Of a stretch of DNA of 15,003 nt, positions 1-15,003 are shown one piece after another (positions within the stretch are counted from its first letter, which is position 1; each line of letters starts with the position of its first letter). The stretch lies in the IMG/VR virus record IMGVR_UViG_2695420897_000031. The stretch is one strand, 5' to 3'. The DNA is from a virus (lineage: Duplodnaviria > Heunggongvirae > Uroviricota > Caudoviricetes). A model generated the notes under the pieces. That model was not told the origin of the DNA and searched no databases. It worked only from the letters and a program-made list of their open reading frames with translations. The position numbers and the translations under genes are program-made.

Positions 1-483
1 ATGACGAAGAAAAAAGCACATAAACCTGGTTCAGCGACCATCGCGCTTAACAAGCGCGCCCGTCACGAATACTTTATCGAAGAAGAGTTCGAAGCGGGAC
101 TTGCCCTGCAAGGCTGGGAGGTTAAATCCCTGCGCGCAGGAAAAGCCAATATCAGCGACAGCTACGTCCTTCTGCGTGACGGAGAGGCATTTCTGTTTGG
201 CGCTAACATCACGCCAATGGCCGTGGCCTCCACGCATGTGGTGTGCGATCCTACCCGTACCCGCAAGTTACTTCTCAACCAACGCGAACTGGACTCATTG
301 TACGGTCGCGTCAATCGAGAAGGCTATACCGTAGTGGCGCTCTCCCTGTACTGGAAAAATGCCTGGTGCAAAGTGAAAATCGGCGTCGCCAAAGGTAAAA
401 AACAGCACGATAAACGTTCAGATATCAAAGAACGCGAATGGCAGGTGGATAAAGCACGTATCATGAAAAACGCCCACCGTTAA
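1..483 (+). CDS. smpB: SsrA-binding protein SmpB (tmRNA partner in trans-translation)
   Basis: 160-aa ORF that I recognise along its full length as enterobacterial SmpB ([55 protein letters not shown]...KNAHR). It lies immediately upstream of ssrA, as in E. coli. Confidence 0.97.
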
Positions 484-649
484 ACCTGCACTCCAATTAT
501 TGACCAGTTCCTCACCGCGCCTCCCTCTCCGGCGGCGCGAATGAACATCTTATTGGCTATCACATCCGACACAAATGTTGCCATCCCATTGCTTAATCGA
601 ATAAAAATCAGGCTACATGGGTGCTAAATCTTTAACGATAACGCCATTG

Positions 650-690
650 AGGCTGGTCATGGCGCTCATAAATCTGGTATACTTACCTTT
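650..690 (+). promoter_or_regulatory. putative ssrA promoter region (-10-like TATACT at 678-683)
   Basis: TATACT hexamer sits 15-20 nt upstream of the mature tmRNA 5' end at 698, consistent with a short 5' leader on the precursor. I could not place a -35 element confidently. Confidence 0.35.
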
Positions 691-697
691 ACACATT

Positions 698-1060
698 GGG
701 GCTGATTCTGGATTCGACGGGATTTGCGAAACCCAAGGTGCATGCCGAGGGGCGGTTGGCCTCGTAAAAAGCCGCAAAAAATAGTCGCAAACGACGAAAA
801 CTACGCTTTAGCAGCTTAATAACCTGCTTAGAGCCCTCTCTCCCTAGCCTCCGCTCTTAGGACGGGGATCAAGAGAGGTCAAACCCAAAAGAGATCGCGT
901 GGAAGCCCTGCCTGGGGTTGAAGCGTTAAAACTTAATCAGGCTAGTTTGTTAGTGGCGTGTCCGTCCGCAGCTGGCAAGCGAATGTAAAGACTGACTAAG
1001 CATGTAGTACCGAGGATGTAGGAATTTCGGACGCGGGTTCAACTCCCGCCAGCTCCACCA
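698..1060 (+). ncRNA. ssrA: tmRNA (SsrA), 363 nt
   Basis: Starts GGGGCTGATTCTGGATTCGACGGG and ends with the tRNA-like GGTTCAACTCCCGCCAGCTCCACCA. The tag reading frame GCA AAC GAC GAA AAC TAC GCT TTA GCA GCT TAA (ANDENYALAA-stop) is at 787-819. Confidence 0.95.
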
Positions 1061-1188
1061 ATCATGATTGGACGGTGTAAGGACAACACCAACAAAAACA
1101 GGAAGTTAGCAGTCTCAGCAGGACACCGACCAGACGGTGAGGAGACAAAAAAGGATACGCAAAGGAGCCGCGGCTCTCAAGTGTGAAA

Positions 1189-1216
1189 GAAGCCCGCAAA
1201 TTGCGGGCTTTTTTAT
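1189..1216 (+). terminator. rho-independent terminator-like hairpin upstream of ORF1
   Basis: GC-rich inverted repeat AAGCCCGCAA / TTGCGGGCTT followed by TTTTTTATT. It lies about 130 nt downstream of the tmRNA CCA end. Confidence 0.55.
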
Positions 1217-1269
1217 TGATCAGTCAACAATAAACAGTAACCGAATGAGAATTTAATAAGGATATTCAT

Positions 1270-2301
1270 ATGGAAGCTACTGTGGATTCGATTGATTTTC
1301 TGATCCGTAGTGAAGATGATTTTCTAAACTTTCTGGAAGAAATGAAAGCCCGAGAGGGGCTTGATTCTAAAGAGTTTATTTTCCCTAACGTAAAGTTTGC
1401 AGGCTGGCCATCCTTAGACATAAATGTAAAAGGAGAGCGGTATCATTCATCAATTACATCAGCAATGTTGTTTGGTATGTCAATGCTCAACGAGGAGATA
1501 CAGCGGGCGTTTGCAACCATACGATACGGATCGCAGAATCTTCAACGCTTGACTAATGAAGACAAGCAACGACTTGATATAAATTTTAAAATTAGCGAAG
1601 GTTCTAGTGATGCGGAAGGCACCACTGACAAGATCATCAACGCAGTAACTGATTTTTTGCGAGATACTATGTCTGGACTGAACGGCTGGCAGAAAATGCT
1701 TGTTATAATCACAATGGTTGGCGCGGCCAGCACATGTGGTTATCACTACATTTCAGAAAATGCCGTAACAGAAAGACATGCAACTGATCGGCAGGTTGAA
1801 ATTGCAAAAACCACATCCGATGGCATAAACAAAGCCATAGAAGCAACATTAGATTATAAAATCTATGGGAAATCAGCGATTAGCGATAAAGTTACTAGTC
1901 ACGGACAAGCAGGTAAAAGTGCTTTAGTGAAGCAATTAGCTGCTGATCCTACTGTCGAAACCGTGACTTTAGGAAATGAGAAACTAACACGACAAGACCT
2001 AAATACCTACAACAGCCGACAATCTGTAGATAGAGAACGTAAAGAACGAACTGATATATTTTCCATCAAAGGTGTAACCAGAACAGGGCCAACAAATCAG
2101 GATATTAATATTAACGTTGTTAGGGTCTCTAATGACGAATGCTTCACAATCAAAGCTTCAGCTGATGTTATCACCCAAGATGAGTTGACAGCTATTGTTG
2201 ACGCTTTGTCAAACAACTCTCATATTAAAATCAGTTACTTAGAGGTAATTGAAAAGGGTGCTGTTTCTATAGGTCAGTTCAACACTATTGTTTCAGAATA
2301 A
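1270..2301 (+). CDS. hypothetical protein, 343 aa (ORF1); unknown function, with one hydrophobic stretch
   Basis: Long uninterrupted ORF with an AAGGA Shine-Dalgarno 7 nt upstream of the ATG. Markedly AT-rich compared with the flanking pin and baseplate genes (judged by eye). Hydrophobic stretch MLVIITMVGAASTCGYHY at residues 143-160 (nt 1696-1749). No family recognised, no canonical Walker A. Confidence 0.6.
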   Translation: MEATVDSIDFLIRSEDDFLNFLEEMKAREGLDSKEFIFPNVKFAGWPSLDINVKGERYHSSITSAMLFGMSMLNEEIQRAFATIRYGSQNLQRLTNEDKQRLDINFKISEGSSDAEGTTDKIINAVTDFLRDTMSGLNGWQKMLVIITMVGAASTCGYHYISENAVTERHATDRQVEIAKTTSDGINKAIEATLDYKIYGKSAISDKVTSHGQAGKSALVKQLAADPTVETVTLGNEKLTRQDLNTYNSRQSVDRERKERTDIFSIKGVTRTGPTNQDININVVRVSNDECFTIKASADVITQDELTAIVDALSNNSHIKISYLEVIEKGAVSIGQFNTIVSE

Positions 2302-2352
2302 TCACTTAACCCCATTTATGTCGGTTGAGGTTATAAGTCACGGAGACCAGAT

Positions 2353-2697
2353 ATGTCCTTAAAGTATGCACATGAAAAATTTCATACTGCAGTACTTACT
2401 CTTGCGGGCCATGGAAGTATTCAAGAACGCTTGATTAATTCGTATGTTTTTAGCCTTGGGCATCTTAAAACAGCCGATGATATTCCAAATGCCTTACAAA
2501 GCAGGTTCGATGAATTATGTAAGGAACTGACTAAGTTTGATGCCACTGGCGATGAGGGGCGAGTTCAAGCAACAGTATCAAAACTTAACGATTTCGAGAT
2601 CAATAAACTGATCGAAGATATTGTCAGTCTTAACGATGATATTTGCATGAAATTGGCTCTGACGGATGAGACTTACCAAGACATACACCAAAGTTAA
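2353..2697 (+). CDS. hypothetical acidic protein, 114 aa (ORF2); probably co-transcribed with ORF1
   Basis: ORF starts 52 nt after ORF1 on the same strand, with GGAG 6-9 nt upstream of the ATG. AT-rich and D/E-rich. No family recognised. Confidence 0.55.
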   Translation: MSLKYAHEKFHTAVLTLAGHGSIQERLINSYVFSLGHLKTADDIPNALQSRFDELCKELTKFDATGDEGRVQATVSKLNDFEINKLIEDIVSLNDDICMKLALTDETYQDIHQS

Positions 2698-2724
2698 TTG
2701 ATTAAATTCAAAAAGTTAACGTTC

Positions 2725-2747
2725 AACCAGCCAGTTTTTGGCTGGTT
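2725..2747. terminator. hairpin between convergent ORF2 (+) and ORF70 (-), possible bidirectional terminator
   Basis: Perfect 8-bp stem AACCAGCC / GGCTGGTT with a 7-nt T-rich loop, T-rich on both flanks, located between two convergent ORFs. Confidence 0.45.
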
Positions 2748-2781
2748 TATTGTCTTATAATATTCTTGCTCGAATGATGCA

Positions 2782-2994
2782 CTATTTATGATGTAATCCG
2801 GACATCAGTTCATGGACAAGATTATCTCTTTCATTGTGTTGCAACCGTAAATGCATAGCAAAAAGGTGAGCACTATCCTCATTCCTCTTCAAGCCATGCT
2901 GTTCAAGATACCCGAAAAAACGGCTTCTCTTATCCGCTATTTCCTGAGTCTGACGTGCAACATTTACCAAATTTTCTAGCGTTTTTCTTGGCAT
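2782..2994 (-). CDS. hypothetical small protein, 70 aa (ORF70), downstream of pin on the same strand
   Basis: ORF with a strong AGGAGG Shine-Dalgarno 7 nt upstream of the ATG (reverse complement of 2995-3010). No cysteines, no recognised family. Confidence 0.5.
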   Translation of the reverse strand: MPRKTLENLVNVARQTQEIADKRSRFFGYLEQHGLKRNEDSAHLFAMHLRLQHNERDNLVHELMSGLHHK

Positions 2995-3192
2995 ACTATT
3001 TCCTCCTGAAATTGTTGTAATTCACTAGGATATTCATTTTAATTTGTATCATTTAGTACCAAAACCGCTATCAATTAATAAAGCCATCGTTGTGGTTTAC
3101 CTTGCAGCCGTTTTTTGTCATTGACTCTATGTGAAAATAATGAATCATCATGAGATTGGCTCACACGTTCTTGAATTCGACGAGCTGTGTCT

Positions 3193-3747
3193 TTATTTAT
3201 CTCCTGCCGGAAACCTCTGATACAAAGTCGATACGCCAACATCATAGATAATCGCAACTTTCTGGCGCGGAACTCCTGATGCAATTAATCGTCCGGCTTG
3301 TGCCCATTGTTCTGGTGTAAGTTTGGGACGACGTCCACCAATTCGTCCCTGTGCGCGAGCAGCTTCCAGTCCAGCTTTTGTTCGTTCAACAATCAGTTCT
3401 CGTTCCATTTCAGCCAGGGCCCCCATCACATGAAAGAAAAAGCGCCCCATTGGGGTACTGGTATCAATTGAATCCGTCAGACTACGAAAGTTGATGCCTC
3501 GTTCGCGCAACTCCTCCACCAGCACGACAAGATGCCGCATACTGCGCCCCAGTCGGTCCAGTTTCCAGACCACCAGCGTATCGCCTGCCGATAATGTCCT
3601 GAGCAGTTTTTTCAGTCCCGGCCTTTCGGACTTTGTACCGCTTATCTTGTCTTCAAAAATCAGCTCGCATCCTGCACAGTTCAGCGCATTACGTTGTAGA
3701 TCTGTGTTCTGGTCATTTGTTGACACACGTACATAGCCAATAAGCAT
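3193..3747 (-). CDS. pin: serine DNA invertase, Pin/Gin/Cin/Hin family (184 aa)
   Basis: Starts MLIGYVRVSTNDQNTDLQRNALNCAGCE... and continues with VVWKLDRLGRSMRHL and GRFFFHVMGALAEMEREL, which I recognise as the small serine invertase family. Its 5' end abuts a cix-like site and a tail-fibre cassette. The six-frame ORF extends 12 codons upstream (to 3783) but the family start is the internal ATG at 3745-3747, which has a GGGAG RBS. Symbol pin is by analogy with the e14 arrangement, not from exact identity. Confidence 0.9.
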   Translation of the reverse strand: MLIGYVRVSTNDQNTDLQRNALNCAGCELIFEDKISGTKSERPGLKKLLRTLSAGDTLVVWKLDRLGRSMRHLVVLVEELRERGINFRSLTDSIDTSTPMGRFFFHVMGALAEMERELIVERTKAGLEAARAQGRIGGRRPKLTPEQWAQAGRLIASGVPRQKVAIIYDVGVSTLYQRFPAGDK

Positions 3748-3801
3748 GGTAGATCTCCCTGACAAAAGCAGGAATGATGCCATTTGCTCGTTATTTCTGC
3801 A

Positions 3802-3827
3802 TTTTCATAAACGTTGGTTTAAGAGCA
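3802..3827. other. cix-like recombination crossover site, pin-proximal (TTTTCATAAACG TT GGTTTAAGAGCA)
   Basis: 26-bp site with imperfect dyad symmetry around a central TT, resembling gix/cix/hix sites (AAACC-NN-GGTTT core). Sequence identity with the Sc-proximal site at 14085-14110 begins exactly at the central dinucleotide. Confidence 0.7.
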
Positions 3828-4124
3828 AGCGGGCAGTACACCGATAATTTGTTATTTACAGGTCCTGATGGTCTTAAGATTCAGGTGTTTCGCCGGACGC
3901 TCGCAAATTTGACTACTGTCGGTGTAGTAAATTCTGTGCCAGTGACTTTCCCTGTCCCGTTCCCTGTTAATTGCTGGGGCGTTTTTTCTACCAAATTAAC
4001 ATGGGTTCAGATAACTAACTCATGCGAGTGGGTAAGCAATACAGGATTTACCGCTCAGGTCATGATGAATATTGCTGTAAATACAAACACCTCAGACGCT
4101 ATGTTTTTAGCTATAGGATATTAA
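3816..4124 (+). other. tail-fibre variable C-terminal cassette SvA, promoterless copy facing pin (silent orientation)
   Basis: Identical to the C-terminal 103 codons of the tail-fibre CDS at 13808-14407, but here it has no constant N-terminal part. The six-frame ORF 3774..4124 is a read-through from the pin leader and not a real start. Confidence 0.65.
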
Positions 4125-4125
4125 T

Positions 4126-4566
4126 ATGAATCGTTTTGTGTTCAGTCCATCTGAGTCCCGTTTTTATGCCATCGAGTGGCAGGCTGATTATGTTGATAAT
4201 AATTGTTGGCCACATGATGCCATTAACGTTAGTGACAGTATTTATTATGAGTTTTCCGGCACTCCCCCTACAGGTAAGCAACTTATAACTTTAAATAACA
4301 TGCCAGCATGGGGTGATATTCCTCCACCTACACGAGAAGAATTAATTGTCGCTGCTGATGTGGAGAAGCAAAAAAGAATAGATTTAGCCAATGATTACAT
4401 GAACGGTAAGCAATGGCCTGGTAAAGCAGCTATTGGTCGTCTGAAAGGTGGGGAACTGGCACAATATAATTTGTGGCTGGATTATCTGGACGCACTGGAG
4501 CTGGTCGATACCGCCAGTGCGCCAGATATTGAATGGCCTACGCCTCCGGCAGTTCAGGCAAGATGA
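4126..4566 (+). CDS. tail fibre assembly protein (Tfa/Mu-U-like chaperone), variant A
   Basis: 146-aa ORF beginning 2 nt after the SvA stop. Sequence (MNRFVFSPSESRFYAIEWQADY...LWLDYLDALELVDTASAPDIEWP) is typical of the phage Tfa family that pairs with invertible fibre cassettes. Confidence 0.8.
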   Translation: MNRFVFSPSESRFYAIEWQADYVDNNCWPHDAINVSDSIYYEFSGTPPTGKQLITLNNMPAWGDIPPPTREELIVAADVEKQKRIDLANDYMNGKQWPGKAAIGRLKGGELAQYNLWLDYLDALELVDTASAPDIEWPTPPAVQAR

Positions 4567-4736
4567 CATCCGGCGCGGTGCTGGTATCTGTTGCCGTCAC
4601 CGCGTCAATGTAATCCAGCACAGTGTTAAGGCTGGTTGTTTCTGCCTGCGTCAGTTTACGTCCGGCCTGCAATTTCAGCTGAATCAGACTGATTGAAGCC
4701 ATTGCAGCATCAATCAGTGACTGGCGCTGTGCTTCA
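4538..4736 (-). pseudogene. 3' fragment of tail fibre assembly gene tfaB, cut at junction 4736|4737
   Basis: Reverse complement of the 3' end of the complete tfaB at 8924-9526. It differs from the other copies at one base (4708 C versus T, Thr to Ala in the tfaB frame). It ends abruptly where smpB-derived sequence resumes. Confidence 0.6.
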
Positions 4737-5091
4737 CCTGCGCGCAGGAAAAGCCAATATCAGCGACAGCTACGTCCTTCTGCGTGACGGAGAGGCATTT
4801 CTGTTTGGCGCTAACATCACGCCAATGGCCGTGGCCTCCACGCATGTGGTGTGCGATCCTACCCGTACCCGCAAGTTACTTCTCAACCAACGCGAACTGG
4901 ACTCATTGTACGGTCGCGTCAATCGAGAAGGCTATACCGTAGTGGCGCTCTCCCTGTACTGGAAAAATGCCTGGTGCAAAGTGAAAATCGGCGTCGCCAA
5001 AGGTAAAAAACAGCACGATAAACGTTCAGATATCAAAGAACGCGAATGGCAGGTGGATAAAGCACGTATCATGAAAAACGCCCACCGTTAA
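4737..5091 (+). pseudogene. smpB: smpB 3' fragment (lacks the first 128 nt)
   Basis: Identical to smpB 129-483. The six-frame ORF 4693..5091 is an artefactual fusion of tfaB antisense sequence to the smpB frame. Confidence 0.7.
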
Positions 5092-5305
5092 ACCTGCACT
5101 CCAATTATTGACCAGTTCCTCACCGCGCCTCCCTCTCCGGCGGCGCGAATGAACATCTTATTGGCTATCACATCCGACACAAATGTTGCCATCCCATTGC
5201 TTAATCGAATAAAAATCAGGCTACATGGGTGCTAAATCTTTAACGATAACGCCATTGAGGCTGGTCATGGCGCTCATAAATCTGGTATACTTACCTTTAC
5301 ACATT

Positions 5306-5668
5306 GGGGCTGATTCTGGATTCGACGGGATTTGCGAAACCCAAGGTGCATGCCGAGGGGCGGTTGGCCTCGTAAAAAGCCGCAAAAAATAGTCGCAAAC
5401 GACGAAAACTACGCTTTAGCAGCTTAATAACCTGCTTAGAGCCCTCTCTCCCTAGCCTCCGCTCTTAGGACGGGGATCAAGAGAGGTCAAACCCAAAAGA
5501 GATCGCGTGGAAGCCCTGCCTGGGGTTGAAGCGTTAAAACTTAATCAGGCTAGTTTGTTAGTGGCGTGTCCGTCCGCAGCTGGCAAGCGAATGTAAAGAC
5601 TGACTAAGCATGTAGTACCGAGGATGTAGGAATTTCGGACGCGGGTTCAACTCCCGCCAGCTCCACCA
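5306..5668 (+). ncRNA. ssrA: tmRNA (SsrA), second copy
   Basis: Identical to 698-1060 (offset +4608). Confidence 0.9.
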
Positions 5669-5877
5669 ATCATGATTGGACGGTGTAAGGACAACACCAA
5701 CAAAAACAGGAAGTTAGCAGTCTCAGCAGGACACCGACCAGACGGTGAGGAGACAAAAAAGGATACGCAAAGGAGCCGCGGCTCTCAAGTGTGAAAGAAG
5801 CCCGCAAATTGCGGGCTTTTTTATTGATCAGTCAACAATAAACAGTAACCGAATGAGAATTTAATAAGGATATTCAT

Positions 5878-6909
5878 ATGGAAGCTACTGTGGATTCGAT
5901 TGATTTTCTGATCCGTAGTGAAGATGATTTTCTAAACTTTCTGGAAGAAATGAAAGCCCGAGAGGGGCTTGATTCTAAAGAGTTTATTTTCCCTAACGTA
6001 AAGTTTGCAGGCTGGCCATCCTTAGACATAAATGTAAAAGGAGAGCGGTATCATTCATCAATTACATCAGCAATGTTGTTTGGTATGTCAATGCTCAACG
6101 AGGAGATACAGCGGGCGTTTGCAACCATACGATACGGATCGCAGAATCTTCAACGCTTGACTAATGAAGACAAGCAACGACTTGATATAAATTTTAAAAT
6201 TAGCGAAGGTTCTAGTGATGCGGAAGGCACCACTGACAAGATCATCAACGCAGTAACTGATTTTTTGCGAGATACTATGTCTGGACTGAACGGCTGGCAG
6301 AAAATGCTTGTTATAATCACAATGGTTGGCGCGGCCAGCACATGTGGTTATCACTACATTTCAGAAAATGCCGTAACAGAAAGACATGCAACTGATCGGC
6401 AGGTTGAAATTGCAAAAACCACATCCGATGGCATAAACAAAGCCATAGAAGCAACATTAGATTATAAAATCTATGGGAAATCAGCGATTAGCGATAAAGT
6501 TACTAGTCACGGACAAGCAGGTAAAAGTGCTTTAGTGAAGCAATTAGCTGCTGATCCTACTGTCGAAACCGTGACTTTAGGAAATGAGAAACTAACACGA
6601 CAAGACCTAAATACCTACAACAGCCGACAATCTGTAGATAGAGAACGTAAAGAACGAACTGATATATTTTCCATCAAAGGTGTAACCAGAACAGGGCCAA
6701 CAAATCAGGATATTAATATTAACGTTGTTAGGGTCTCTAATGACGAATGCTTCACAATCAAAGCTTCAGCTGATGTTATCACCCAAGATGAGTTGACAGC
6801 TATTGTTGACGCTTTGTCAAACAACTCTCATATTAAAATCAGTTACTTAGAGGTAATTGAAAAGGGTGCTGTTTCTATAGGTCAGTTCAACACTATTGTT
6901 TCAGAATAA
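5878..6909 (+). CDS. hypothetical protein, 343 aa (ORF1, second copy)
   Basis: Identical translation to 1270-2301. Confidence 0.6.
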   Translation: MEATVDSIDFLIRSEDDFLNFLEEMKAREGLDSKEFIFPNVKFAGWPSLDINVKGERYHSSITSAMLFGMSMLNEEIQRAFATIRYGSQNLQRLTNEDKQRLDINFKISEGSSDAEGTTDKIINAVTDFLRDTMSGLNGWQKMLVIITMVGAASTCGYHYISENAVTERHATDRQVEIAKTTSDGINKAIEATLDYKIYGKSAISDKVTSHGQAGKSALVKQLAADPTVETVTLGNEKLTRQDLNTYNSRQSVDRERKERTDIFSIKGVTRTGPTNQDININVVRVSNDECFTIKASADVITQDELTAIVDALSNNSHIKISYLEVIEKGAVSIGQFNTIVSE

Positions 6910-6960
6910 TCACTTAACCCCATTTATGTCGGTTGAGGTTATAAGTCACGGAGACCAGAT

Positions 6961-7305
6961 ATGTCCTTAAAGTATGCACATGAAAAATTTCATACTGCAG
7001 TACTTACTCTTGCGGGCCATGGAAGTATTCAAGAACGCTTGATTAATTCGTATGTTTTTAGCCTTGGGCATCTTAAAACAGCCGATGATATTCCAAATGC
7101 CTTACAAAGCAGGTTCGATGAATTATGTAAGGAACTGACTAAGTTTGATGCCACTGGCGATGAGGGGCGAGTTCAAGCAACAGTATCAAAACTTAACGAT
7201 TTCGAGATCAATAAACTGATCGAAGATATTGTCAGTCTTAACGATGATATTTGCATGAAATTGGCTCTGACGGATGAGACTTACCAAGACATACACCAAA
7301 GTTAA
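6961..7305 (+). CDS. hypothetical acidic protein, 114 aa (ORF2, second copy)
   Basis: Identical translation to 2353-2697. Confidence 0.55.
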   Translation: MSLKYAHEKFHTAVLTLAGHGSIQERLINSYVFSLGHLKTADDIPNALQSRFDELCKELTKFDATGDEGRVQATVSKLNDFEINKLIEDIVSLNDDICMKLALTDETYQDIHQS

Positions 7306-7389
7306 TTGATTAAATTCAAAAAGTTAACGTTCAACCAGCCAGTTTTTGGCTGGTTTATTGTCTTATAATATTCTTGCTCGAATGATGCA

Positions 7390-7602
7390 CTATTTATGAT
7401 GTAATCCGGACATCAGTTCATGGACAAGATTATCTCTTTCATTGTGTTGCAACCGTAAATGCATAGCAAAAAGGTGAGCACTATCCTCATTCCTCTTCAA
7501 GCCATGCTGTTCAAGATACCCGAAAAAACGGCTTCTCTTATCCGCTATTTCCTGAGTCTGACGTGCAACATTTACCAAATTTTCTAGCGTTTTTCTTGGC
7601 AT
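7390..7602 (-). CDS. hypothetical small protein, 70 aa (ORF70, second copy)
   Basis: Identical translation to 2782-2994. Confidence 0.5.
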   Translation of the reverse strand: MPRKTLENLVNVARQTQEIADKRSRFFGYLEQHGLKRNEDSAHLFAMHLRLQHNERDNLVHELMSGLHHK

Positions 7603-7800
7603 ACTATTTCCTCCTGAAATTGTTGTAATTCACTAGGATATTCATTTTAATTTGTATCATTTAGTACCAAAACCGCTATCAATTAATAAAGCCATCGTTG
7701 TGGTTTACCTTGCAGCCGTTTTTTGTCATTGACTCTATGTGAAAATAATGAATCATCATGAGATTGGCTCACACGTTCTTGAATTCGACGAGCTGTGTCT

Positions 7801-8355
7801 TTATTTATCTCCTGCCGGAAACCTCTGATACAAAGTCGATACGCCAACATCATAGATAATCGCAACTTTCTGGCGCGGAACTCCTGATGCAATTAATCGT
7901 CCGGCTTGTGCCCATTGTTCTGGTGTAAGTTTGGGACGACGTCCACCAATTCGTCCCTGTGCGCGAGCAGCTTCCAGTCCAGCTTTTGTTCGTTCAACAA
8001 TCAGTTCTCGTTCCATTTCAGCCAGGGCCCCCATCACATGAAAGAAAAAGCGCCCCATTGGGGTACTGGTATCAATTGAATCCGTCAGACTACGAAAGTT
8101 GATGCCTCGTTCGCGCAACTCCTCCACCAGCACGACAAGATGCCGCATACTGCGCCCCAGTCGGTCCAGTTTCCAGACCACCAGCGTATCGCCTGCCGAT
8201 AATGTCCTGAGCAGTTTTTTCAGTCCCGGCCTTTCGGACTTTGTACCGCTTATCTTGTCTTCAAAAATCAGCTCGCATCCTGCACAGTTCAGCGCATTAC
8301 GTTGTAGATCTGTGTTCTGGTCATTTGTTGACACACGTACATAGCCAATAAGCAT
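7801..8355 (-). CDS. pin: serine DNA invertase, Pin/Gin/Cin/Hin family (second copy)
   Basis: Identical to 3193-3747 (offset +4608). Confidence 0.9.
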   Translation of the reverse strand: MLIGYVRVSTNDQNTDLQRNALNCAGCELIFEDKISGTKSERPGLKKLLRTLSAGDTLVVWKLDRLGRSMRHLVVLVEELRERGINFRSLTDSIDTSTPMGRFFFHVMGALAEMERELIVERTKAGLEAARAQGRIGGRRPKLTPEQWAQAGRLIASGVPRQKVAIIYDVGVSTLYQRFPAGDK

Positions 8356-8409
8356 GGTAGATCTCCCTGACAAAAGCAGGAATGATGCCATTTGCTCGTT
8401 ATTTCTGCA

Positions 8410-8435
8410 TTTTCATAAACGTTGGTTTGGGAGAA
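8410..8435. other. cix-like crossover site, pin-proximal, second copy (TTTTCATAAACG TT GGTTTGGGAGAA)
   Basis: Left half and central TT are the same as at 3802-3815. The right half belongs to the SvB cassette instead of SvA. Confidence 0.7.
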
Positions 8436-8924
8436 GGCTCTGCATTACCTGTTGGTGTGCCTGTTCCGTGGCCTTCCGCCACTCCGCCGACAGGCTGGCT
8501 GAAATGCAACGGTGCCGCTTTTTCTGCTGAAGAATACCCGGAACTGGCAAAGGCTTATCCGACAAATAAATTGCCTGATTTACGTGGTGAGTTTATTCGT
8601 GGCTGGGATGACGGGCGTGGTATTGATGCTGTACGTGCCTTGCTAAGTCTTCAGAATGGAGGAGTGGAATCACACACCCACCAAGGGCAGCTCTTCAGAG
8701 TTAGTGATTATCGTACAAAAGAAATACCAGCATCAGAAGTTATGGGAAGAGGATATATTGCAAGCCTGACGCCGGGTGCTGATAGCCCACTTGATTTTGA
8801 TGATTATTATGTATCTTCTAATCCAAATGGATATTTTGTCGGGAATCAGAGAACAACAGCATATGGGATAAATGAAACCCGTCCACGGAATATTGCATTT
8901 AACTATATCGTGAGGGCTGCATAA
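8424..8924 (+). other. tail-fibre variable C-terminal cassette SvB (silent orientation, facing away from pin)
   Basis: Encodes ...LKCNGAAFSAEEYPELAKAYPTNKLPDLRGEFIRGWDDGRGID...ETRPRNIAFNYIVRAA, which resembles the receptor-binding C-terminal domain common to enterobacterial phage side tail fibres. The frame is continuous with the crossover site, so inversion would fuse it to the constant N-terminus. Confidence 0.7.
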
Positions 8925-9526
8925 TGGATAACGCTGTATTAAATAGCGAGTTTATTGCTACAAAGGCGGGGAATATTACCGTCTATAACTATGATGGCGA
9001 AACACGGGAATATATTTCCACATCAACTGAATATCTTGCCGTTGGTGTCGGTATCCCTGCATATTCCTGTTTAGATGCCCCTGGCACATACAAAGCTGGT
9101 TATGCAATCTGCCGATCTGTAGATTTTAACTCATGGGAATATGTGCCAGACCATCGCGGTGAAATCGTCTTTAGCACCGAAACAGGAGAATCAAAAGAAA
9201 TCACAGCTCCGGGTGATTACCCTGATAATACAACCACTATCGCCCCGTTAACGCCATACGATAAATGGGATGGTGAGAAATGGGTGACGGATACCGAAGC
9301 ACAGCATAGCGCCGCAGTAGATGCAGCAGAAGCACAGCGCCAGTCACTGATTGATACTGCAATGGCTTCAATCAGTCTGATTCAGCTGAAATTGCAGGCC
9401 GGACGTAAACTGACGCAGGCAGAAACAACCAGCCTTAACACTGTGCTGGATTACATTGACGCGGTGACGGCAACAGATACCAGCACCGCGCCGGATGTCA
9501 TCTTGCCTGAACTGCCGGAGGCGTAG
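8924..9526 (+). CDS. tail fibre assembly protein (Tfa family), variant B
   Basis: 200-aa ORF whose ATG overlaps the SvB stop by 1 nt. Its C-terminal region (...LDYIDAVTATDTSTAPDVILPELP) parallels the C-terminus of tfaA. Confidence 0.75.
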   Translation: MDNAVLNSEFIATKAGNITVYNYDGETREYISTSTEYLAVGVGIPAYSCLDAPGTYKAGYAICRSVDFNSWEYVPDHRGEIVFSTETGESKEITAPGDYPDNTTTIAPLTPYDKWDGEKWVTDTEAQHSAAVDAAEAQRQSLIDTAMASISLIQLKLQAGRKLTQAETTSLNTVLDYIDAVTATDTSTAPDVILPELPEA

Positions 9527-9938
9527 GCCATTCAATATCTGGCGCACTGGCGGTATCGACCAGCTCCAGTGCGTCCAGATAATCCAGCCACAAATTATAT
9601 TGTGCCAGTTCCCCACCTTTCAGACGACCAATAGCTGCTTTACCAGGCCATTGCTTACCGTTCATGTAATCATTGGCTAAATCTATTCTTTTTTGCTTCT
9701 CCACATCAGCAGCGACAATTAATTCTTCTCGTGTAGGTGGAGGAATATCACCCCATGCTGGCATGTTATTTAAAGTTATAAGTTGCTTACCTGTAGGGGG
9801 AGTGCCGGAAAACTCATAATAAATACTGTCACTAACGTTAATGGCATCATGTGGCCAACAATTATTATCAACATAATCAGCCTGCCACTCGATGGCATAA
9901 AAACGGGACTCAGATGGACTGAACACAAAACGATTCAT
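9498..9938 (-). CDS. tail fibre assembly protein, variant A (inverted copy)
   Basis: Identical translation to 4126-4566. Its 3' end overlaps tfaB by 29 bp in convergent orientation. Confidence 0.8.
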   Translation of the reverse strand: MNRFVFSPSESRFYAIEWQADYVDNNCWPHDAINVSDSIYYEFSGTPPTGKQLITLNNMPAWGDIPPPTREELIVAADVEKQKRIDLANDYMNGKQWPGKAAIGRLKGGELAQYNLWLDYLDALELVDTASAPDIEWPTPPAVQAR

Positions 9939-9939
9939 A

Positions 9940-10248
9940 TTAATATCCTATAGCTAAAAACATAGCGTCTGAGGTGTTTGTATTTACAGCAATATTCATC
10001 ATGACCTGAGCGGTAAATCCTGTATTGCTTACCCACTCGCATGAGTTAGTTATCTGAACCCATGTTAATTTGGTAGAAAAAACGCCCCAGCAATTAACAG
10101 GGAACGGGACAGGGAAAGTCACTGGCACAGAATTTACTACACCGACAGTAGTCAAATTTGCGAGCGTCCGGCGAAACACCTGAATCTTAAGACCATCAGG
10201 ACCTGTAAATAACAAATTATCGGTGTACTGCCCGCTTGCTCTTAAACC
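9940..10248 (-). other. tail-fibre variable cassette SvA (inverted copy), ending at a cix half-site
   Basis: Reverse complement of 3816-4124. Here it is not preceded by the constant fibre N-terminus; it meets gp44-like sequence instead. Confidence 0.65.
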
Positions 10249-10250
10249 AA
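10237..10250. other. cix half-site plus central AA, ending exactly at the non-canonical junction 10250|10251
   Basis: TGCTCTTAAACC AA matches the reverse complement of the cix right half and centre. The expected partner half (GGTTTTCGAGA, as at 14085-14096 in reverse) is replaced by ATGGCCGGGAGA. Confidence 0.6.
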
Positions 10251-10251
10251 A

Positions 10252-11211
10252 TGGCCGGGAGATGAGGGTATCACCACGCTTCAGCCGCGCATTAAAAACG
10301 GTTCAAAAGTGGAAGTGCTGATTGGTGATGAGCTGGTGATCACCGGCTGGGTGGAGGCGACTCCCGTTCGTTACGATGCCCGTTCGGTCAGCACCGGTAT
10401 TGCCGGACGTAGTCTGACGGCTGACCTGATTGACTGTGCAGCCGAACCGACACAGTTTAACGGACGCTCGCTGGTGCAGATTGCGCAGGCGCTTGCTGCG
10501 CCTTTCGGCATTGAGGTGGTGAACAGCGGTGCGCCATCGGGTGTTATTCCTGATGTTCAGCCTGATCACGGTGAAACGGTGATTGAGGTAATCAACAAAA
10601 TACTCGGTCAGCAGCAGGCGCTGGCTTACGACGACCCGCACGGTAGGCTGGTGATTGGTGGTATTGGCTCAACGCGGGCACATACCGCGCTGGTACTTGG
10701 GGAAAACATCCTTTCCTGTGATACGGAGAAGAGTATCCGGGAGCGGTTTTCTGTTTACCAGGTGGCGGGGCAGCGTGCCGGAAACGACGATGATTTCGGT
10801 GAGGCCACCACCACCGCGCTGCGGGCCCGCACAGAGGACGCATTTATTGCCCGTTACCGTCCGATGTATATCAGGCAGACAGGGCAGGCTACGGGGGCAG
10901 GCTGTATTGCCCGTGCGGACTTTGAAGCCCGACAACGGGCGGCGCGGACGGATGAAACCACCTATGTGGTGCAGGGCTGGCGACAGGGTAACGGTACGCT
11001 GTGGCAGCCCAACCAGCGGGTGATTGTCTTCGATCCGGTCTGTGGTTTCGACAATACCGAACTGCTTGTCTCGGAAGTCACGTTTACTCAGGACCAGAAC
11101 GGCACCCTGACGGAAATCCGTGTCGGCCCGCCTGATGCTTATCTGCCTGAACCCGAAGCTCCCGGCGCGCGGAAAAAGAAAAAAGCCAGAGTACAGGAGG
11201 ACCCGTTCTGA
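10252..11211 (+). pseudogene. 5'-truncated Mu gp44 (P) / P2 gpD-like baseplate or tail protein
   Basis: Reading frame is open from the junction (WPGDEGITTLQPRIKNGSKVEVLIGDE...) with no start codon or RBS in a sensible position. Family assignment rests on gene order, size and GC-rich phage-like composition. The stop overlaps the next start (TGATG). Confidence 0.5.
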
Positions 11212-11759
11212 TGAGGACGATTGAAGCCATGCAGCGACAACTTCTCGGCCTGATTGGGCGGGCAGTGGTGAAAAGCATCAGTGCCGCCACGAAATGCCAG
11301 ACCGTGGATGTGTCCCTGATTGCCGGTGAACCCAAAGCCGGGGTTGAACATCTTGAACCCTACGGTTTTACCGCAAGGGCAAACAGCGGTGCGGAAGCGG
11401 TGGTGTTGTTTCCGGATGGCGACCGTTCTCATGCGGTGGTTGTTACGGTGTCGGACCGGCGCTACCGCCTGAAAGGGCTGCAGACGGGTGAGGTGGCTGT
11501 CTATGACGATCAGGGGCAGTCCGTGACGCTGACCCGGGAGGGGATCGTGGTGGACGGTGCAGGTAAAACGATCACGTTTCGCAATTCACCTAAAGCACGT
11601 TTTGAAATGGACCTGGAAGTGACCGGACAGGTGAAAGACCTGTGCGACTCCGGCGGCACCACCATGTCAGCGATGCGGCTTGCCTATAACGGGCATCGTC
11701 ACAGAGAGAACGGTCAGGGCAGTAACACCGACAAACCTGATAAAGCGATGGAGGCATGA
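11211..11759 (+). CDS. baseplate assembly protein V / Mu gp45-like spike (182 aa)
   Basis: Contains ...PYGFTARANSGAEAVVLFPDGDRSHAVVVTVSDRRYRLKGLQTGEVAVYDDQGQSVTL... and a DSGGTT motif, which I recognise as the Mu gp45 / P2 gpV family. Translationally coupled to neighbours. Confidence 0.7.
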   Translation: MRTIEAMQRQLLGLIGRAVVKSISAATKCQTVDVSLIAGEPKAGVEHLEPYGFTARANSGAEAVVLFPDGDRSHAVVVTVSDRRYRLKGLQTGEVAVYDDQGQSVTLTREGIVVDGAGKTITFRNSPKARFEMDLEVTGQVKDLCDSGGTTMSAMRLAYNGHRHRENGQGSNTDKPDKAMEA

Positions 11760-12184
11760 TGGAACTGTGGCTGACGGTGAGCGGTAAACGCACCTGCGCC
11801 AGCGCACCGCTGGATCCGCTGACCCGCGCCGTGGTGATTTCCCTGTTTACCTGGCGGCGGGCGGAGCCTGATGACAACGCCGACGTCCCGATGGGATGGT
11901 GGGGGGATACCTGGCCTGCGGTACAGAATGACCGTTACGGCTCCCGACTGTGGCTGCTTCAGCGCAGCAAACTGACCAATCAGCTGGTGCAGACGGTAAG
12001 GGGGTATATCCGCGAATGCCTGCAATGGATGATTGATGACGGCGTGGTGTCCCGTATTGATCTGGATATCCGCCGTACCGGGATTAATGAACTGGGTAAC
12101 AGTATCACTCTCTGGCGTCGTGACGGACCGGTAATGATTTCTTTTGATGATCTGTGGAGTGCGATAACGCATGGCGGACAGTGA
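11756..12184 (+). CDS. Mu gp46-like baseplate protein (142 aa)
   Basis: Small ORF overlapping its neighbours by 4 and 14 nt, in the position of gp46 in Mu-like tail modules. Confidence 0.5.
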   Translation: MMELWLTVSGKRTCASAPLDPLTRAVVISLFTWRRAEPDDNADVPMGWWGDTWPAVQNDRYGSRLWLLQRSKLTNQLVQTVRGYIRECLQWMIDDGVVSRIDLDIRRTGINELGNSITLWRRDGPVMISFDDLWSAITHGGQ

Positions 12185-13229
12185 ATTTCAGCGCCCGACG
12201 CTGGCAGAAAATATCAGTATGCTCCGTAACGATTTATTCGCCAGGCTGGACGTCAGCAACACGCTCCGGCGCATGGATGAAGACGTGCGGGCAAAGGTGT
12301 ATGCGGCGGCGCTGCATACGGTCTACGGGTACATCGATTATCTGGCAATGAATATGCTGCCTGACCTGTGCGATGAGTCCTGGCTGGCGCGACATGCTGC
12401 GATGAAACGGTGTCCGCGCAAGGGGGCCACGGCTGCCAGCGGGTATATGCGCTGGGAAGGTGTCAGCGATGGCCTGAAGGTGACTGCCGGGAGCGTGATT
12501 CAGCGCGATGACCTGGTTCAGTACACGGCAACTGCCGATGCAACCAGCTCCGGTGGTGTCCTGCGTGTGCCGATCACTTGCTCAACTACAGGCGCGGTCG
12601 GTAACGCTGACGACGGTACGGCATTAATCCTGGTCACGCCGGTGAATGGTCTGCCGTCTTCCGGTGTTGCAGATACCCTGACTGGCGGATTCGATACTGA
12701 AGATCTGGAAACGTGGCGCGCCCGCGTCATTGAGCGGTATTACTGGACGCCGCAGGGCGGGGCTGACGGGGACTATGTCGTCTGGGCTAAAGAAGTGCCC
12801 GGCATTACCCGCGCATGGACATACCGTCACTGGATGGGAACGGGAACTGTCGGTGTGATGATTGCCAGCAGTGACCTGATTAATCCCATTCCGGAAGAAT
12901 CAACGGAAACGGCGGCAAGACAACATATCGGGCCACTGGCCCCGGTGGCAGGCTCTGATTTGTATGTATTCAGGCCGGTGGCACATAAAGTGGATTTTCA
13001 TATCCGCGTGACGCCGGATACACCGGAAATACGGGCTGCCATCACCGCGGAGTTGCGTTCGTTCCTGCTGCGTGATGGTTATCCGCAGGGAGAACTGAAG
13101 GTGTCGCGTATCAGTGAGGCGATTTCCGGTGCGAACGGGGAATACAGCCATCAGTTGCTTGCACCGGCAGACAATATCTCCATTGCAAAAAATGAACTGG
13201 CGGTTCTGGGGACGATTTCATGGACGTGA
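12171..13229 (+). CDS. baseplate J-like protein (Mu gp47 / P2 gpJ family, 352 aa)
   Basis: Size, position between gp46-like and gp48-like genes, and overall sequence character are consistent with baseplate J. Confidence 0.6.
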
Positions 13230-13804
13230 CAAACGATGATTACATCCGTCTGTTGTCTGCACTGTTGCCCCCCGGTCCGGCGTGGTCAGCCAGCGATCCG
13301 GCGATTGCCGGTTCGGCACCGTCATTAACCCGCGTTCATCAGCGTGCGGATGCCCTGATGCGGGAGCTGGATCCGCGCACCACCACCGAACTGATAAACC
13401 GCTGGGAGCGTCTGTGCGGCCTGCCGGATGAATGTATTCCCGCAGGGACACAGACCCTTCGCCAGCGTCAGCAACGACTGGATGCGAAGGTTAACCTGGC
13501 GGGCGGCATCAATGAGGATTTTTACCTTGCACAGCTTGCTGCCCTGGGCAGACCAGACGCTACCATCACGCGATACGACAAAAGCACGTTCACCTGCTCA
13601 TCAGCCTGCACTGACGCTGTGAATGCGCCGGAATGGCGGTATTACTGGCAGGTCAACATGCCAGCCGCCACCAACACCACCTGGATGACATGTGGCGATC
13701 CCTGTGATTCCGCACTGCGTATCTGGGGCGACACCGTTGTCGAGTGTGTGCTTAACAAACTCTGCCCGTCGCATACCTACGTAATTTTTAAATATCCGGA
13801 GTAA
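13220..13804 (+). CDS. Mu gp48-like tail protein (P2 gpI-like, 194 aa)
   Basis: Position immediately upstream of the tail-fibre gene, overlapping the baseplate J-like gene by 10 nt. Confidence 0.5.
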
Positions 13805-13807
13805 TTC

Positions 13808-14407
13808 ATGCATCGTATAGACACGAAAACCGCGCAGAAGGATAAGTTCGGCGCGGGTAAGAACGGTTTTACCCGTGGTAACCCCCAGACCGGCACACCT
13901 GCCACCGATCTGGATGATGACTACTTTGACATGTTGCAGGAGGAGCTTTGCAGCGTTGTGGAGGCCTCCGGTGCCAGCCTGGAGAAAGGGCGGCACGACC
14001 AGTTGCTTACCGCGCTTCGTGCGCTGCTGTTAAGCCGCAAAAATCCGTTTGGCGATATCAAATCGGACGGCACGGTGAAAACGGCTCTCGAAAACCTTGG
14101 TTTAAGAGCAAGCGGGCAGTACACCGATAATTTGTTATTTACAGGTCCTGATGGTCTTAAGATTCAGGTGTTTCGCCGGACGCTCGCAAATTTGACTACT
14201 GTCGGTGTAGTAAATTCTGTGCCAGTGACTTTCCCTGTCCCGTTCCCTGTTAATTGCTGGGGCGTTTTTTCTACCAAATTAACATGGGTTCAGATAACTA
14301 ACTCATGCGAGTGGGTAAGCAATACAGGATTTACCGCTCAGGTCATGATGAATATTGCTGTAAATACAAACACCTCAGACGCTATGTTTTTAGCTATAGG
14401 ATATTAA
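13808..14407 (+). CDS. short side tail fibre protein: constant N-terminus (Sc) fused to variable cassette SvA (199 aa)
   Basis: N-terminus [75 protein letters not shown] is a widely conserved enterobacterial prophage tail-fibre N-terminus. The cix site at 14085-14110 lies inside the CDS at the Sc/Sv boundary, as in Mu S and e14 fibres. Confidence 0.8.
14085..14110. other. cix-like crossover site, Sc-proximal (TCTCGAAAACC TT GGTTTAAGAGCA), inside the tail-fibre CDS
   Basis: Same right half and central TT as 3802-3827, with a different left half. Both halves contain the AAACC/GGTTT core. Confidence 0.7.
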
Positions 14408-14408
14408 T

Positions 14409-14849
14409 ATGAATCGTTTTGTGTTCAGTCCATCTGAGTCCCGTTTTTATGCCATCGAGTGGCAGGCTGATTATGTTGATAATAATTGTTGGCCACATGA
14501 TGCCATTAACGTTAGTGACAGTATTTATTATGAGTTTTCCGGCACTCCCCCTACAGGTAAGCAACTTATAACTTTAAATAACATGCCAGCATGGGGTGAT
14601 ATTCCTCCACCTACACGAGAAGAATTAATTGTCGCTGCTGATGTGGAGAAGCAAAAAAGAATAGATTTAGCCAATGATTACATGAACGGTAAGCAATGGC
14701 CTGGTAAAGCAGCTATTGGTCGTCTGAAAGGTGGGGAACTGGCACAATATAATTTGTGGCTGGATTATCTGGACGCACTGGAGCTGGTCGATACCGCCAG
14801 TGCGCCAGATATTGAATGGCCTACGCCTCCGGCAGTTCAGGCAAGATGA
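14409..14849 (+). CDS. tail fibre assembly protein, variant A (expressed orientation, downstream of Sc-SvA)
   Basis: Identical translation to 4126-4566. Confidence 0.8.
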   Translation: MNRFVFSPSESRFYAIEWQADYVDNNCWPHDAINVSDSIYYEFSGTPPTGKQLITLNNMPAWGDIPPPTREELIVAADVEKQKRIDLANDYMNGKQWPGKAAIGRLKGGELAQYNLWLDYLDALELVDTASAPDIEWPTPPAVQAR

Positions 14850-15003
14850 CATCCGGCGCGGTGCTGGTATCTGTTGCCGTCACCGCGTCAATGTAATCCA
14901 GCACAGTGTTAAGGCTGGTTGTTTCTGCCTGCGTCAGTTTACGTCCGGCCTGCAATTTCAGCTGAATCAGACTGATTGAAGCCATTGCAGTATCAATCAG
15001 TGA
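14821..15003 (-). CDS. tail fibre assembly protein variant B, 3' portion (runs off the window end)
   Basis: Reverse complement of the 3' end of tfaB (8924-9526). Carries T at the position where the copy at 4708 has C. Confidence 0.6.
   Translation of the reverse strand, partial: SLIDTAMASISLIQLKLQAGRKLTQAETTSLNTVLDYIDAVTATDTSTAPDVILPELPEA

Follow-up and report, generated by a model that had tools for sequence, protein, structure and literature searches.

The K-12 prophage e14, integrated in icd, carries tail fibre genes, an invertible segment, pin and then a small cargo slot at the prophage end, and the same succession is found at the locus described here. The slot holds mcrA in e14 and ORF1-3 here, while the target is icd in e14 and ssrA here. 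Moreover, the integrase end of e14 adjoins the intact gene and its pin-mcrA end the displaced fragment, whereas the polarity at the present locus is the reverse. In e14 and phage 21, a stretch of attP about 165-209 bp long reportedly shares homology with the icd transcript at its 3' end, which would keep the gene expressed; the role of this homology stretch is matched here by a copy of about 190 nt that comprises the ssrA end, its trailer and a terminator. A second group of relatives, SfV, SfI, SfII and SfIV, integrates at tRNA-Thr (thrW) and carries O-antigen modification cargo. The baseplate and tail genes at 10252-14113 share 97-98% nucleotide identity with these phages, and the overall gene order of the SfV group matches that of complete prophages related to ours at ssrA, whereas an ssrA-specific integrase, Pin and ORF1-3 set the ssrA lineage apart.

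Among the elements that share the target, CP4-57-type islands form tandem arrays with the prophage studied here (loci L007 and L056). In these arrays, no more than about 170-210 nt separate the ssrA core copy from the start of their integrase gene downstream, and their arm continues with AAATTC directly past CCA, without the Escherichia-type trailer. P2-like (Fels-2-like) ssrA prophages have the same integrase-distal polarity as our prophage, with the ogr end on the ssrA side and int beside the displaced fragment, yet they differ from it in a 45-nt identity block, in the integrase family and in the lack of a conserved trailer on the ssrA-proximal arm. More generally, Islander-type islands combine an intact target gene with a displaced, direct 3' fragment and an internal tyrosine integrase; integration restores the gene because a piece of the target travels in the attP of the island, and arrays in tandem occur often, also at the tmRNA gene (PMC4383910). 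The present locus does not differ in kind from these islands, although the restored part extends about 165 nt past the mature 3' end.

The window analysed here is a stretch of 15,003 nucleotides. We read its positions 1061-1269 as the attL arm of a temperate SfV/e14-like prophage that integrates at the 3' end of ssrA, has a distal integrase and brings a phage-borne trailer, and we give this reading a probability of roughly 0.78. According to the proposed mechanism, a tyrosine integrase would recombine within the last 25-30 nt of ssrA, in the T-arm region, and attP would carry, 3' of the core, its own copy of the ssrA 3' end, an Escherichia-type trailer of about 116 nt and a terminator hairpin. 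After integration, as the junctions suggest, ssrA would be rebuilt, processed and terminated on phage DNA. The circular order would be int, 1.5-2.4 kb of variable cargo, core, trailer and terminator, ORF1-ORF2-ORF3 and pin; in the integrated state, the pin/ORF1 end would adjoin the intact ssrA and the integrase would lie 37-40 kb away beside the displaced ssrA fragment. Read in this way, there is nothing out of the ordinary here: a prophage of a known kind has its attL end at a familiar hotspot of integration.

The features of the window are compiled in Table 1. The intact target gene that marks one end of Islander-type islands is represented by the first tmRNA gene, whose encoded tag is ANDENYALAA. 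As the original prediction stated, the first plus-strand gene past ssrA in the list of open reading frames is ORF1, no integrase lies between ssrA and the cargo, and the nearest recombinase, pin, is a serine invertase rather than an integrase. In the Pfam domain search, no ORF of the 15-kb window contained a Phage_integrase domain, and no tyrosine integrase was found among them. The position directly downstream of ssrA, which the integrase occupies in CP4-57-type islands, is taken here by ORF1, which has no integrase domain. Pfam did recover the Mu-type baseplate genes gpP, gp45, gp46, gp47 and gp48 that are typical of SfV/e14-like phages, and a small serine invertase lies beside a tail-fibre segment with inverted crossover sites, as in that group. 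The attachment site of the type phages (icd for e14, tRNA-Thr for SfV) is not the one used here, which is ssrA. The prophage is thus a relative of e14 and SfV with a different integration module, and is neither e14 nor SfV itself.

Table 1. Features of the 15,003-nt window (+ and -, strand; empty cells, nothing recorded).
Feature	Position	Strand	Description
smpB	1-483	+	complete, 160 aa; Pfam SmpB E = 1.5e-57; annotated smpB in relatives
Repeated block, first copy	129-3820		smpB (from nt 129), ssrA, trailer, ORF1-3, pin (self-BLAST)
Promoter-like site of ssrA	654-683		promoter scan
ssrA (tmRNA), copy 1	698-1060	+	ARAGORN; Rfam RF00023, 295.8 bits; mature end CCA
Attachment-site identity block (core)	1031-1060	+	last 25-30 nt of ssrA, T-arm and acceptor 3' strand
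Core sequence ACGCGGGTTCAACTCCCGCCAGCTCCACCA			ssrA 3' end
Palindrome CCAATCATGATTGG	1058-1071		perfect, 14 bp; spans the mature CCA end of ssrA
ssrA 3' trailer copy, prophage-borne (proposed)	1061-1176	+	nearly identical to the native Escherichia ssrA-ypjA spacer
Direct repeat within trailer, GACGGTGTAAGGACAA and GACGGTGAGGAGACAA	1071-1086, 1133-1148	+	62-nt spacing
Small conserved hairpin GGAGC-CGCG-GCTCT	1164-1177	+	fold; holds the 12-bp palindrome 1165-1176
Predicted intrinsic terminator of ssrA, variant "W"	1186-1216	+	13-bp stem; specific to the prophage arm
End of native-spacer homology (~1225), GC drop, ORF1 leader	1217-1269	+	alignment, GC, sequence
RBS AAGGA of ORF1	1258-1262	+	sequence read directly
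ORF1	1270-2301	+	343 aa, AT-rich cargo; PHROG 6191 (unknown function)
ORF2	2353-2697	+	114 aa
Terminator-like hairpin past ORF2	2725-2747		
ORF3	2782-2994	-	70 aa; always accompanies ORF1-ORF2
pin	3193-3783	-	small serine invertase, 184-196 aa; Resolvase E = 1.8e-51, HTH_7
Pin crossover site	3803-3828		central TT 3814-3815; comparison of three sites
Invertible tail-fibre segment, part A	3814-4736	+	self-BLAST match to 4741; gp53-like C-terminal exon and tail-fibre assembly gene; Pfam Gp53-like_C, Caudo_TAP
Repeated block, second copy	4737-8428	+	100% identical to 129-3820 over 3,692 bp
ssrA, copy 2	5306-5668	+	complete; trailer 5669-5877
Equivalent Pin crossover sites	8411-8436, 14078-14103		
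Invertible segment, opposite state	8429-10250		part B (+) 8429-9322, then part A inverted 9323-10250
Baseplate block	10251-14091	+	Mu-like baseplate: gpP fragment, gp45, gp46, gp47/J, gp48; tail-fibre constant part (Pfam)
Part A again	14092-15003	+	

The window contains the block from smpB to pin twice, the second copy consisting of an smpB gene that lacks its first 128 nt (~43 codons), ssrA with its trailer, ORF1-3 and pin. The second complete ssrA and trailer (5306-5877) had been missed in the original prediction. When the window was searched for a further copy of the ssrA 3' end, as had been proposed there, a match was indeed obtained at 5644-5668, which proved to be the end of the complete gene at 5306-5668 and not an att fragment; no partial ssrA copy is present in the window, and only the full duplicate matches the 3'-end query. 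The repeat boundaries of the self-BLAST fall exactly at the Pin crossover site, and the segment 8429-10250 likewise ends exactly at its central dinucleotide. The invertible segment is present in both orientations within the window, and the two copies of the repeated block carry it in opposite states. Two joints are abnormal. The first, 4736/4737, leads from the interior of the tail-fibre assembly gene to nt 129 of smpB, at the palindrome CCTGCGCGCAGG, and was absent from 5,426 complete E. coli genomes, IMG/VR, GTDB representatives and JGI metagenomes; the second, 10250/10251, connects a Pin crossover site, exactly at its central dinucleotide, with the inside of the gpP-like baseplate gene, and was absent from the 5,426 E. 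coli genomes. Since these joints are seen nowhere else, the long-range structure of the window is untrustworthy. The region 10251-15003 is oriented relative to ssrA in the reverse of what is found in every relative, and the last block is the reverse complement of the expected continuation of the second, with an overlap of at least 907 identical bases. The window is therefore probably mis-joined, through an artefact of assembly or concatenation. Most simply, one locus would have been captured in three overlapping versions, possibly alternative contigs of the two inversion states, that were then joined end to end, while a real tandem combined with a fold-back rearrangement is possible. Other findings from this window, such as two ssrA genes and an inverted tail module, need care because it appears mis-joined; the finding on the trailer is unaffected, because both copies of 1061-1269 are identical.

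We then considered where the island becomes visible. A query covering 1040-1290 was searched against the 5,426 complete E. coli genomes: most of it is present in only 45 of them, and the part from 1040 to about 1220, which covers the ssrA end, trailer and terminator, is matched at 80-95% identity in 4,173. Strain ET82 has an empty site, where a spacer of 160 nt lies between ssrA and the convergent ypjA, and in K-12 this ssrA-ypjA spacer is located at the right end of CP4-57, just before ypjA. Alignment revealed that the ET82 spacer equals the window through 1176, the end of the palindrome, without a single difference, and that 1177 to about 1225 is a diverged homologue of the native terminator (GCCCGC...GCGGGC versus native GCCCAC...GTGGGC). 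Similarity to the native spacer ceases after about 1225, and the GC content falls at the same place, from 52% at 1001-1200 to 35% at 1201-1400. The original prediction had placed the visible start of the island immediately 3' of the CCA end, which does not hold, as the next 116 nt are essentially native trailer and the break comes at about 1225. Nor can the palindrome and the hairpin serve as signals of the island: 1061-1176 equals the native spacer and the following stretch is homologous to the native terminator, and both elements therefore belong to the conserved trailer and terminator of ssrA.

Both elements are nevertheless real. The 12-bp palindrome GAGCCGCGGCTC was recovered at exactly 1165-1176, and for the terminator hairpin, originally placed at 1189-1216, RNAfold returned a 13-bp stem at 1186-1214 followed by a T-run. 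A simple terminator scan omitted this hairpin, since it counts the T-run inside the stem, whereas the RNAfold structure is clear. Being preceded by an A-run and followed by a T-run, the terminator is bidirectional in form, and it would be expected to end transcription of ssrA. Its hairpin is 100% paired across 12 distinct variants, the native allele showing one G-C to A-U compensatory change; in the small hairpin that contains the palindrome, five pairs likewise persist in all 12 variants, one of them through a compensatory change from C-G to U-A. The 165-nt trailer as a whole folds with z = -3.7 (RNAfold). Perfect 12-bp palindromes occur five times in the 9.5 kb of non-redundant window, compared with 2.3 expected, and this count is reached by 6% of shuffles; such a palindrome alone is not rare, and it is conservation that makes the one at 1165-1176 meaningful. 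The original prediction had overlooked the 14-bp palindrome CCAATCATGATTGG. We also observed that many lineages of elements share the 116-nt trailer with remarkably little variation, and this trailer could hold integrase arm sites or processing signals.

As the trailer looks native, it was essential to determine on which side of the crossover it lies. The core is repeated directly 37.6-40 kb downstream of ssrA, over 27 nt in L007 and 30 nt in both L056 and FDAARGOS_1287, and a repeat of 25 nt was found in L062; no such direct core repeats are expected by chance. From these sequences we infer that the recombination joint probably lies inside ssrA, within its last 25-30 nt, and neither at the CCA end nor at about 1225. 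Beyond the far-end repeat, each of three complete relatives has a different further element, and none of these is preceded by the trailer: one is a P2-like arm, the other two are CP4-57-like islands with integrases of their own. Therefore, the prophage would have crossed over inside ssrA and brought the trailer along. In FDAARGOS_1287, a second, different trailer allele lies past the last repeat of the array.

Linkage within the trailer points in the same direction. Among 50 sites, drawn from contigs of IMG/VR and from genomes, there are 11 variants of the terminator, and each goes 1:1 with one downstream sequence, with the reservation that the IMG/VR sites were gathered by a pattern containing the trailer start and elements without this trailer are hence under-sampled. 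At 57 sites, the SNP haplotype of the trailer tracks the downstream DNA irrespective of the core on the upstream side, which may be full-length or measure 23, 27 or 45 nt; this linkage rules out a crossover at the palindrome. In one non-E. coli genome, in which the 3.4 kb upstream of ssrA match no E. coli genome, the ssrA body differs at 9 positions while the trailer is identical at 209/209 positions and ORF1 is identical as well; a bapABCD-like operon lies upstream of ssrA in this genome, a region that we read as Salmonella-like. Among 185,579 species representatives, the exact junction of ssrA end and trailer was found only in Escherichia, plus one contig that is probably a contaminant. Taken together, the tandem arrays, the linkage and the identical copy in a non-E. 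coli genome indicate that the trailer travels with the prophage, and the array junctions, the linkage and the non-E. coli arm all agree with the Islander principle that island-borne sequence restores the 3' part of the target. A free-phage attP, sought as right arm, core and trailer with the right-arm variant of strain 0-4 only, gave 0 matches in IMG/VR, and because 0 virion or circular attP sequences were found, the phage-borne status of the trailer is argued from array logic and linkage only. Locus L053 was considered as an attP and rejected, since it is a tandem array behind a different prophage, without homology to the right end of the prophage studied here.

The arrangement ssrA-ORF1-ORF2-ORF3-pin is common to 43 complete E. 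coli genomes. Three complete relatives with the same arm were fetched, strain 0-4, YZB902 and FDAARGOS_1287; in the first two, the ssrA arm forms the left end of the prophage, and the distance from ssrA to the att repeat is 37.6 kb (0-4) and 39.7 kb (YZB902). The prophage runs from pin through the invertible tail-fibre segment, Mu-type baseplate and tail genes, HK97-type head genes, lysis genes and a lambdoid early region to the integrase. In all three relatives, this far-end integrase is a protein of 389-390 aa with Arm-DNA-bind_2 and Phage_integrase domains (encoded at 35844-37016 in L007). Between it and a 27-30 nt repeat lies a stretch of variable cargo, 1.5-2.4 kb long, which comprises STAS-like genes in 0-4, DarTG in YZB902 and SecB-like cargo in FDAARGOS_1287. 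In FDAARGOS_1287, the order of the prophage has been disturbed by a large inversion, which took place between the invertible tail-fibre segment of this prophage and that of the neighbouring P2-like prophage. One of the two options offered in the original prediction, an element of opposite polarity with its integrase at the far end, is thus what all three complete relatives display, and with integrase and att repeat in place there, the boundary at ssrA is of the ordinary type.

A census of polarity by tblastn, with four query integrases against all fetched loci, extended this observation. For 22 displaced ssrA fragments the sequence reached 3 kb or more upstream, and for 21 of them an integrase lies 0.7-3.1 kb upstream, read in the orientation of ssrA, while an integrase within 4 kb downstream of the intact ssrA occurred at none of 32 sites, 31 of which carry the conserved trailer. 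The sampling reservation on the IMG/VR sites applies to this census as well. The premise that the integrase adjoins ssrA is accordingly valid for CP4-57-like islands, the only elements with integrase-proximal geometry in this census, and in the integrase families found here the gene is normally distal. The missing integrase beside ssrA is the normal geometry of this class of element and not a mark of decay. When the phage is circular, attP and the integrase gene still lie near each other, the latter 5' of the core.

The other option, that the integrase end was lost and the block from ORF1 to pin was fixed as an immobile leftover beside ssrA, is unlikely for this genome. Such remnants do occur: in strains 602687, L060 and L064, all that is left is ORF1 through ymfQ, truncated by IS3 beside a ypjA fragment, and a window with neither integrase nor att repeat would fit them. 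Yet the genes of the window reach beyond their point of truncation, with gp47, gp46, gp45 and part of gpP; these baseplate genes are 99.8% identical to those of FDAARGOS_1287, a full prophage, and the relatives fetched that carry them are complete in 3/3 cases. Because the window carries baseplate genes past the remnant cut at this level of identity, a complete prophage is the more likely state of the genome from which it came, and the far end would then be present there.

It is very unlikely that the trailer is instead chromosomal, with an island inserted past the terminator at about 1225, at the 3' end of ypjA, by way of some other site or by crossover at the palindrome GGAGCCGCGGCTC. The identity of 1061-1176 to the empty-site sequence, the homology and GC break at about 1225 and the resemblance of the palindrome to a core-type recombinase site would all accord with such an insertion, whereas the far ends of the three complete prophages repeat the ssrA core only, without terminator or palindrome. 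The trailer SNPs left of the palindrome follow the downstream DNA and not the upstream element, the same trailer stands in a non-E. coli genome, and FDAARGOS_1287 has two different trailer alleles, one per array end. Hardly credible is the notion that the ORF1 cassette is moved by Pin or by some other mechanism that needs no integrase. No recombinase lies nearer than Pin, and the ORF1-3 cassette is mosaic, being found also at the ends of lambdoid prophages without pin (L057, L058 and L063); this last point counts against Pin as well, which is a 184-aa invertase with its own inverted crossover sites around the tail-fibre segment, and the cassette boundaries coincide with the ssrA att core, as fits a tyrosine integrase. 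We therefore favour the attL arm of an ssrA-integrating prophage with a distal integrase and a phage-borne trailer.

The cargo next to this arm is AT-rich, and the ORF1-ORF3 cassette, ORF1 included, has no Pfam or PADLOC match. Homologues of ORF1 form 76 clusters of hypothetical proteins in Enterobacterales, and the exact protein is listed in 4,671 index blocks. The AlphaFold model of ORF1 is poor (pLDDT 66.8, pTM 0.32) and confident only for the C-terminal ~110 residues; in a Foldseek search against the PDB it matched nothing at E <= 0.001, with weak OB-fold-like matches only. In the lambdoid prophages without pin, ORF1 together with the same trailer constitutes the ssrA-proximal arm, and in the slot of ORF1-3, e14 has mcrA and a related prophage has a GIY-YIG nuclease. 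It is plausible that ORF1-3 serve in defence or as morons. Relatives annotate the neighbouring invertase as pinE, a protein of 184 aa corresponding to 3193-3747.

For K-12, which has a CP4-57-type arm past ssrA, RNase E processing was mapped on CACCA-A-A-AUU (PMC5291269), and this sequence matches the CP4-57-like arm past the repeat in YZB902. Each resident element would therefore supply the trailer for tmRNA maturation. A review of RNase R contained nothing on pre-tmRNA. We further speculate, as a quite unlikely extension, that the trailer could be the P' arm of attP for its integrase family rather than a flank copied passively, with the GACGGTGNNNGNGACAA repeat (N = any base; 1071-1086 and 1133-1148), the palindrome spanning CCA and the GGAGC/GCTCC hairpin as putative protein-binding or processing signals, and that the "native" spacer would itself be a fossil phage arm. 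As a further part of this speculation, ORF1-3 might be expressed by read-through from the strong ssrA promoter. If the spacer were such a fossil, every Escherichia tmRNA would be processed and terminated on phage-derived DNA.

At this locus, the boundary of homology and GC content (~1225) and the boundary of recombination (1031-1060) lie about 190 nt apart. The trailer and terminator delivered by the phage resemble those of the host; island callers relying on empty sites will misplace such ends, and a comparison with the empty site would misread the palindrome and the terminator as features of the island. An island should not be taken for unusual or dead merely because the tRNA or tmRNA gene has no integrase beside it, as whole integrase families end up with the integrase gene at the far end.

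The stretch at 4737-8428 is an exact direct repeat of 3,692 bp that spans smpB' to pin, the gene of a small serine DNA invertase, and two complete tmRNA genes are found in the window, with the second copy of ssrA at 5306-5668. At the joint 4736|4737, a tail-fibre assembly gene is fused to nucleotide 129 of smpB at the palindrome CCTGCGCGCAGG, and this joint was detected in none of 5,426 E. coli genomes and in none of three contig collections. The duplication, together with its joint, is probably an artefact of assembly or concatenation.

The invertible tail-fibre segment points one way beside the first copy of the pin region and the other way beside the second (3814-4736 versus 8429-10250): pin is adjoined by part A of the segment in one copy and by part B in the other. 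Should these copies represent alternative contigs, Pin was inverting the segment in the culture that was sequenced. An SNP at 4708 sets the first copy of A apart from the other two. Further downstream, 10251-15003 is the reverse complement of the sequence expected after 10250, and this tail/baseplate block shares at least 907 identical bases, inverted, with the block that precedes it (9323-10250 region). The joint before 10251 falls precisely on the dinucleotide at the centre of a Pin crossover site, from which the sequence continues into a gpP-like gene. A contig end at a repeat boundary or a fold-back chimera is a possible cause of this joint, while the action of Pin on a quasi-site is less likely.

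A palindrome spans the mature CCA end of ssrA, and the 3' trailer contains a direct repeat; both are candidates for signals of processing or for integrase-arm sites. In a second native trailer allele, the 12-bp hairpin palindrome of the trailer (1165-1176 in the window) reads GAGTCGCGACTC, a symmetric double change by which the hairpin is kept. The terminator loop of this allele is seen as TGATG and as its mirror form ATCAG, and the allele occurs in strains that lack ypjA.

Beyond the trailer lies the AT-rich (35-45% GC) ORF1-ORF2-ORF3 cassette (1270-2994), which is without assigned function and lies in the slot taken by mcrA in e14. The sole confidently predicted domain of ORF1 is C-terminal and OB-like. 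Index blocks that list the exact ORF1 protein number 4,671; among them are ends of pin-less lambdoid prophages and a genome other than E. coli. The far-end integrase is separated from the att repeat by a second cargo slot, whose content varies by strain.

Coordinates of trailer features, of the second native trailer allele and of the second cargo slot
Feature	Location	Description
Perfect palindrome CCAATCATGATTGG	1058-1071	14 bp; spans mature CCA end
Direct repeat in trailer	GACGGTGTAAGGACAA 1071-1086 / GACGGTGAGGAGACAA 1133-1148	16 nt; 62 nt apart
Second native trailer allele	L008 (FDAARGOS_1287) 19740-19921	- strand
Second native trailer allele	IMG/VR loci L015, L020, L033, L042	
Second cargo slot	L007 (strain 0-4) 37008-38878	STAS-like genes
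Second cargo slot	L056 (YZB902) 39074-40390	DarT/DarG
Second cargo slot	L002 (FDAARGOS_1287) 41343-42662	SecB-like + two genes without known function
Second cargo slot	L062 7747-9669	ParA-like ATPase + two genes without known function

Outside E. coli, the arm of trailer, ORF1-3 and pin recurs in identical form at locus L059 (GCA_028892975.1, CP117307.1), where the 3.4 kb before ssrA include a bapABCD-like operon and have no E. coli match. This implies that the prophage arm has moved between genera. The Escherichia ssrA end and trailer also appear on a 428-nt contig of an assembly labelled Phyllobacterium myrsinacearum (NZ_PVBT01000021.1), most likely as a contamination of that assembly.

A ~47-kb inversion was observed in E. 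coli FDAARGOS_1287 at about 84.3-131.4 kb of the record. It connects the invertible tail-fibre segments of two prophages, the SfV-like element at ssrA and a P2-like prophage with an invertase of its own, and the genomes of both are interleaved through it. Invertase sites appear to serve as recombination points between prophages.
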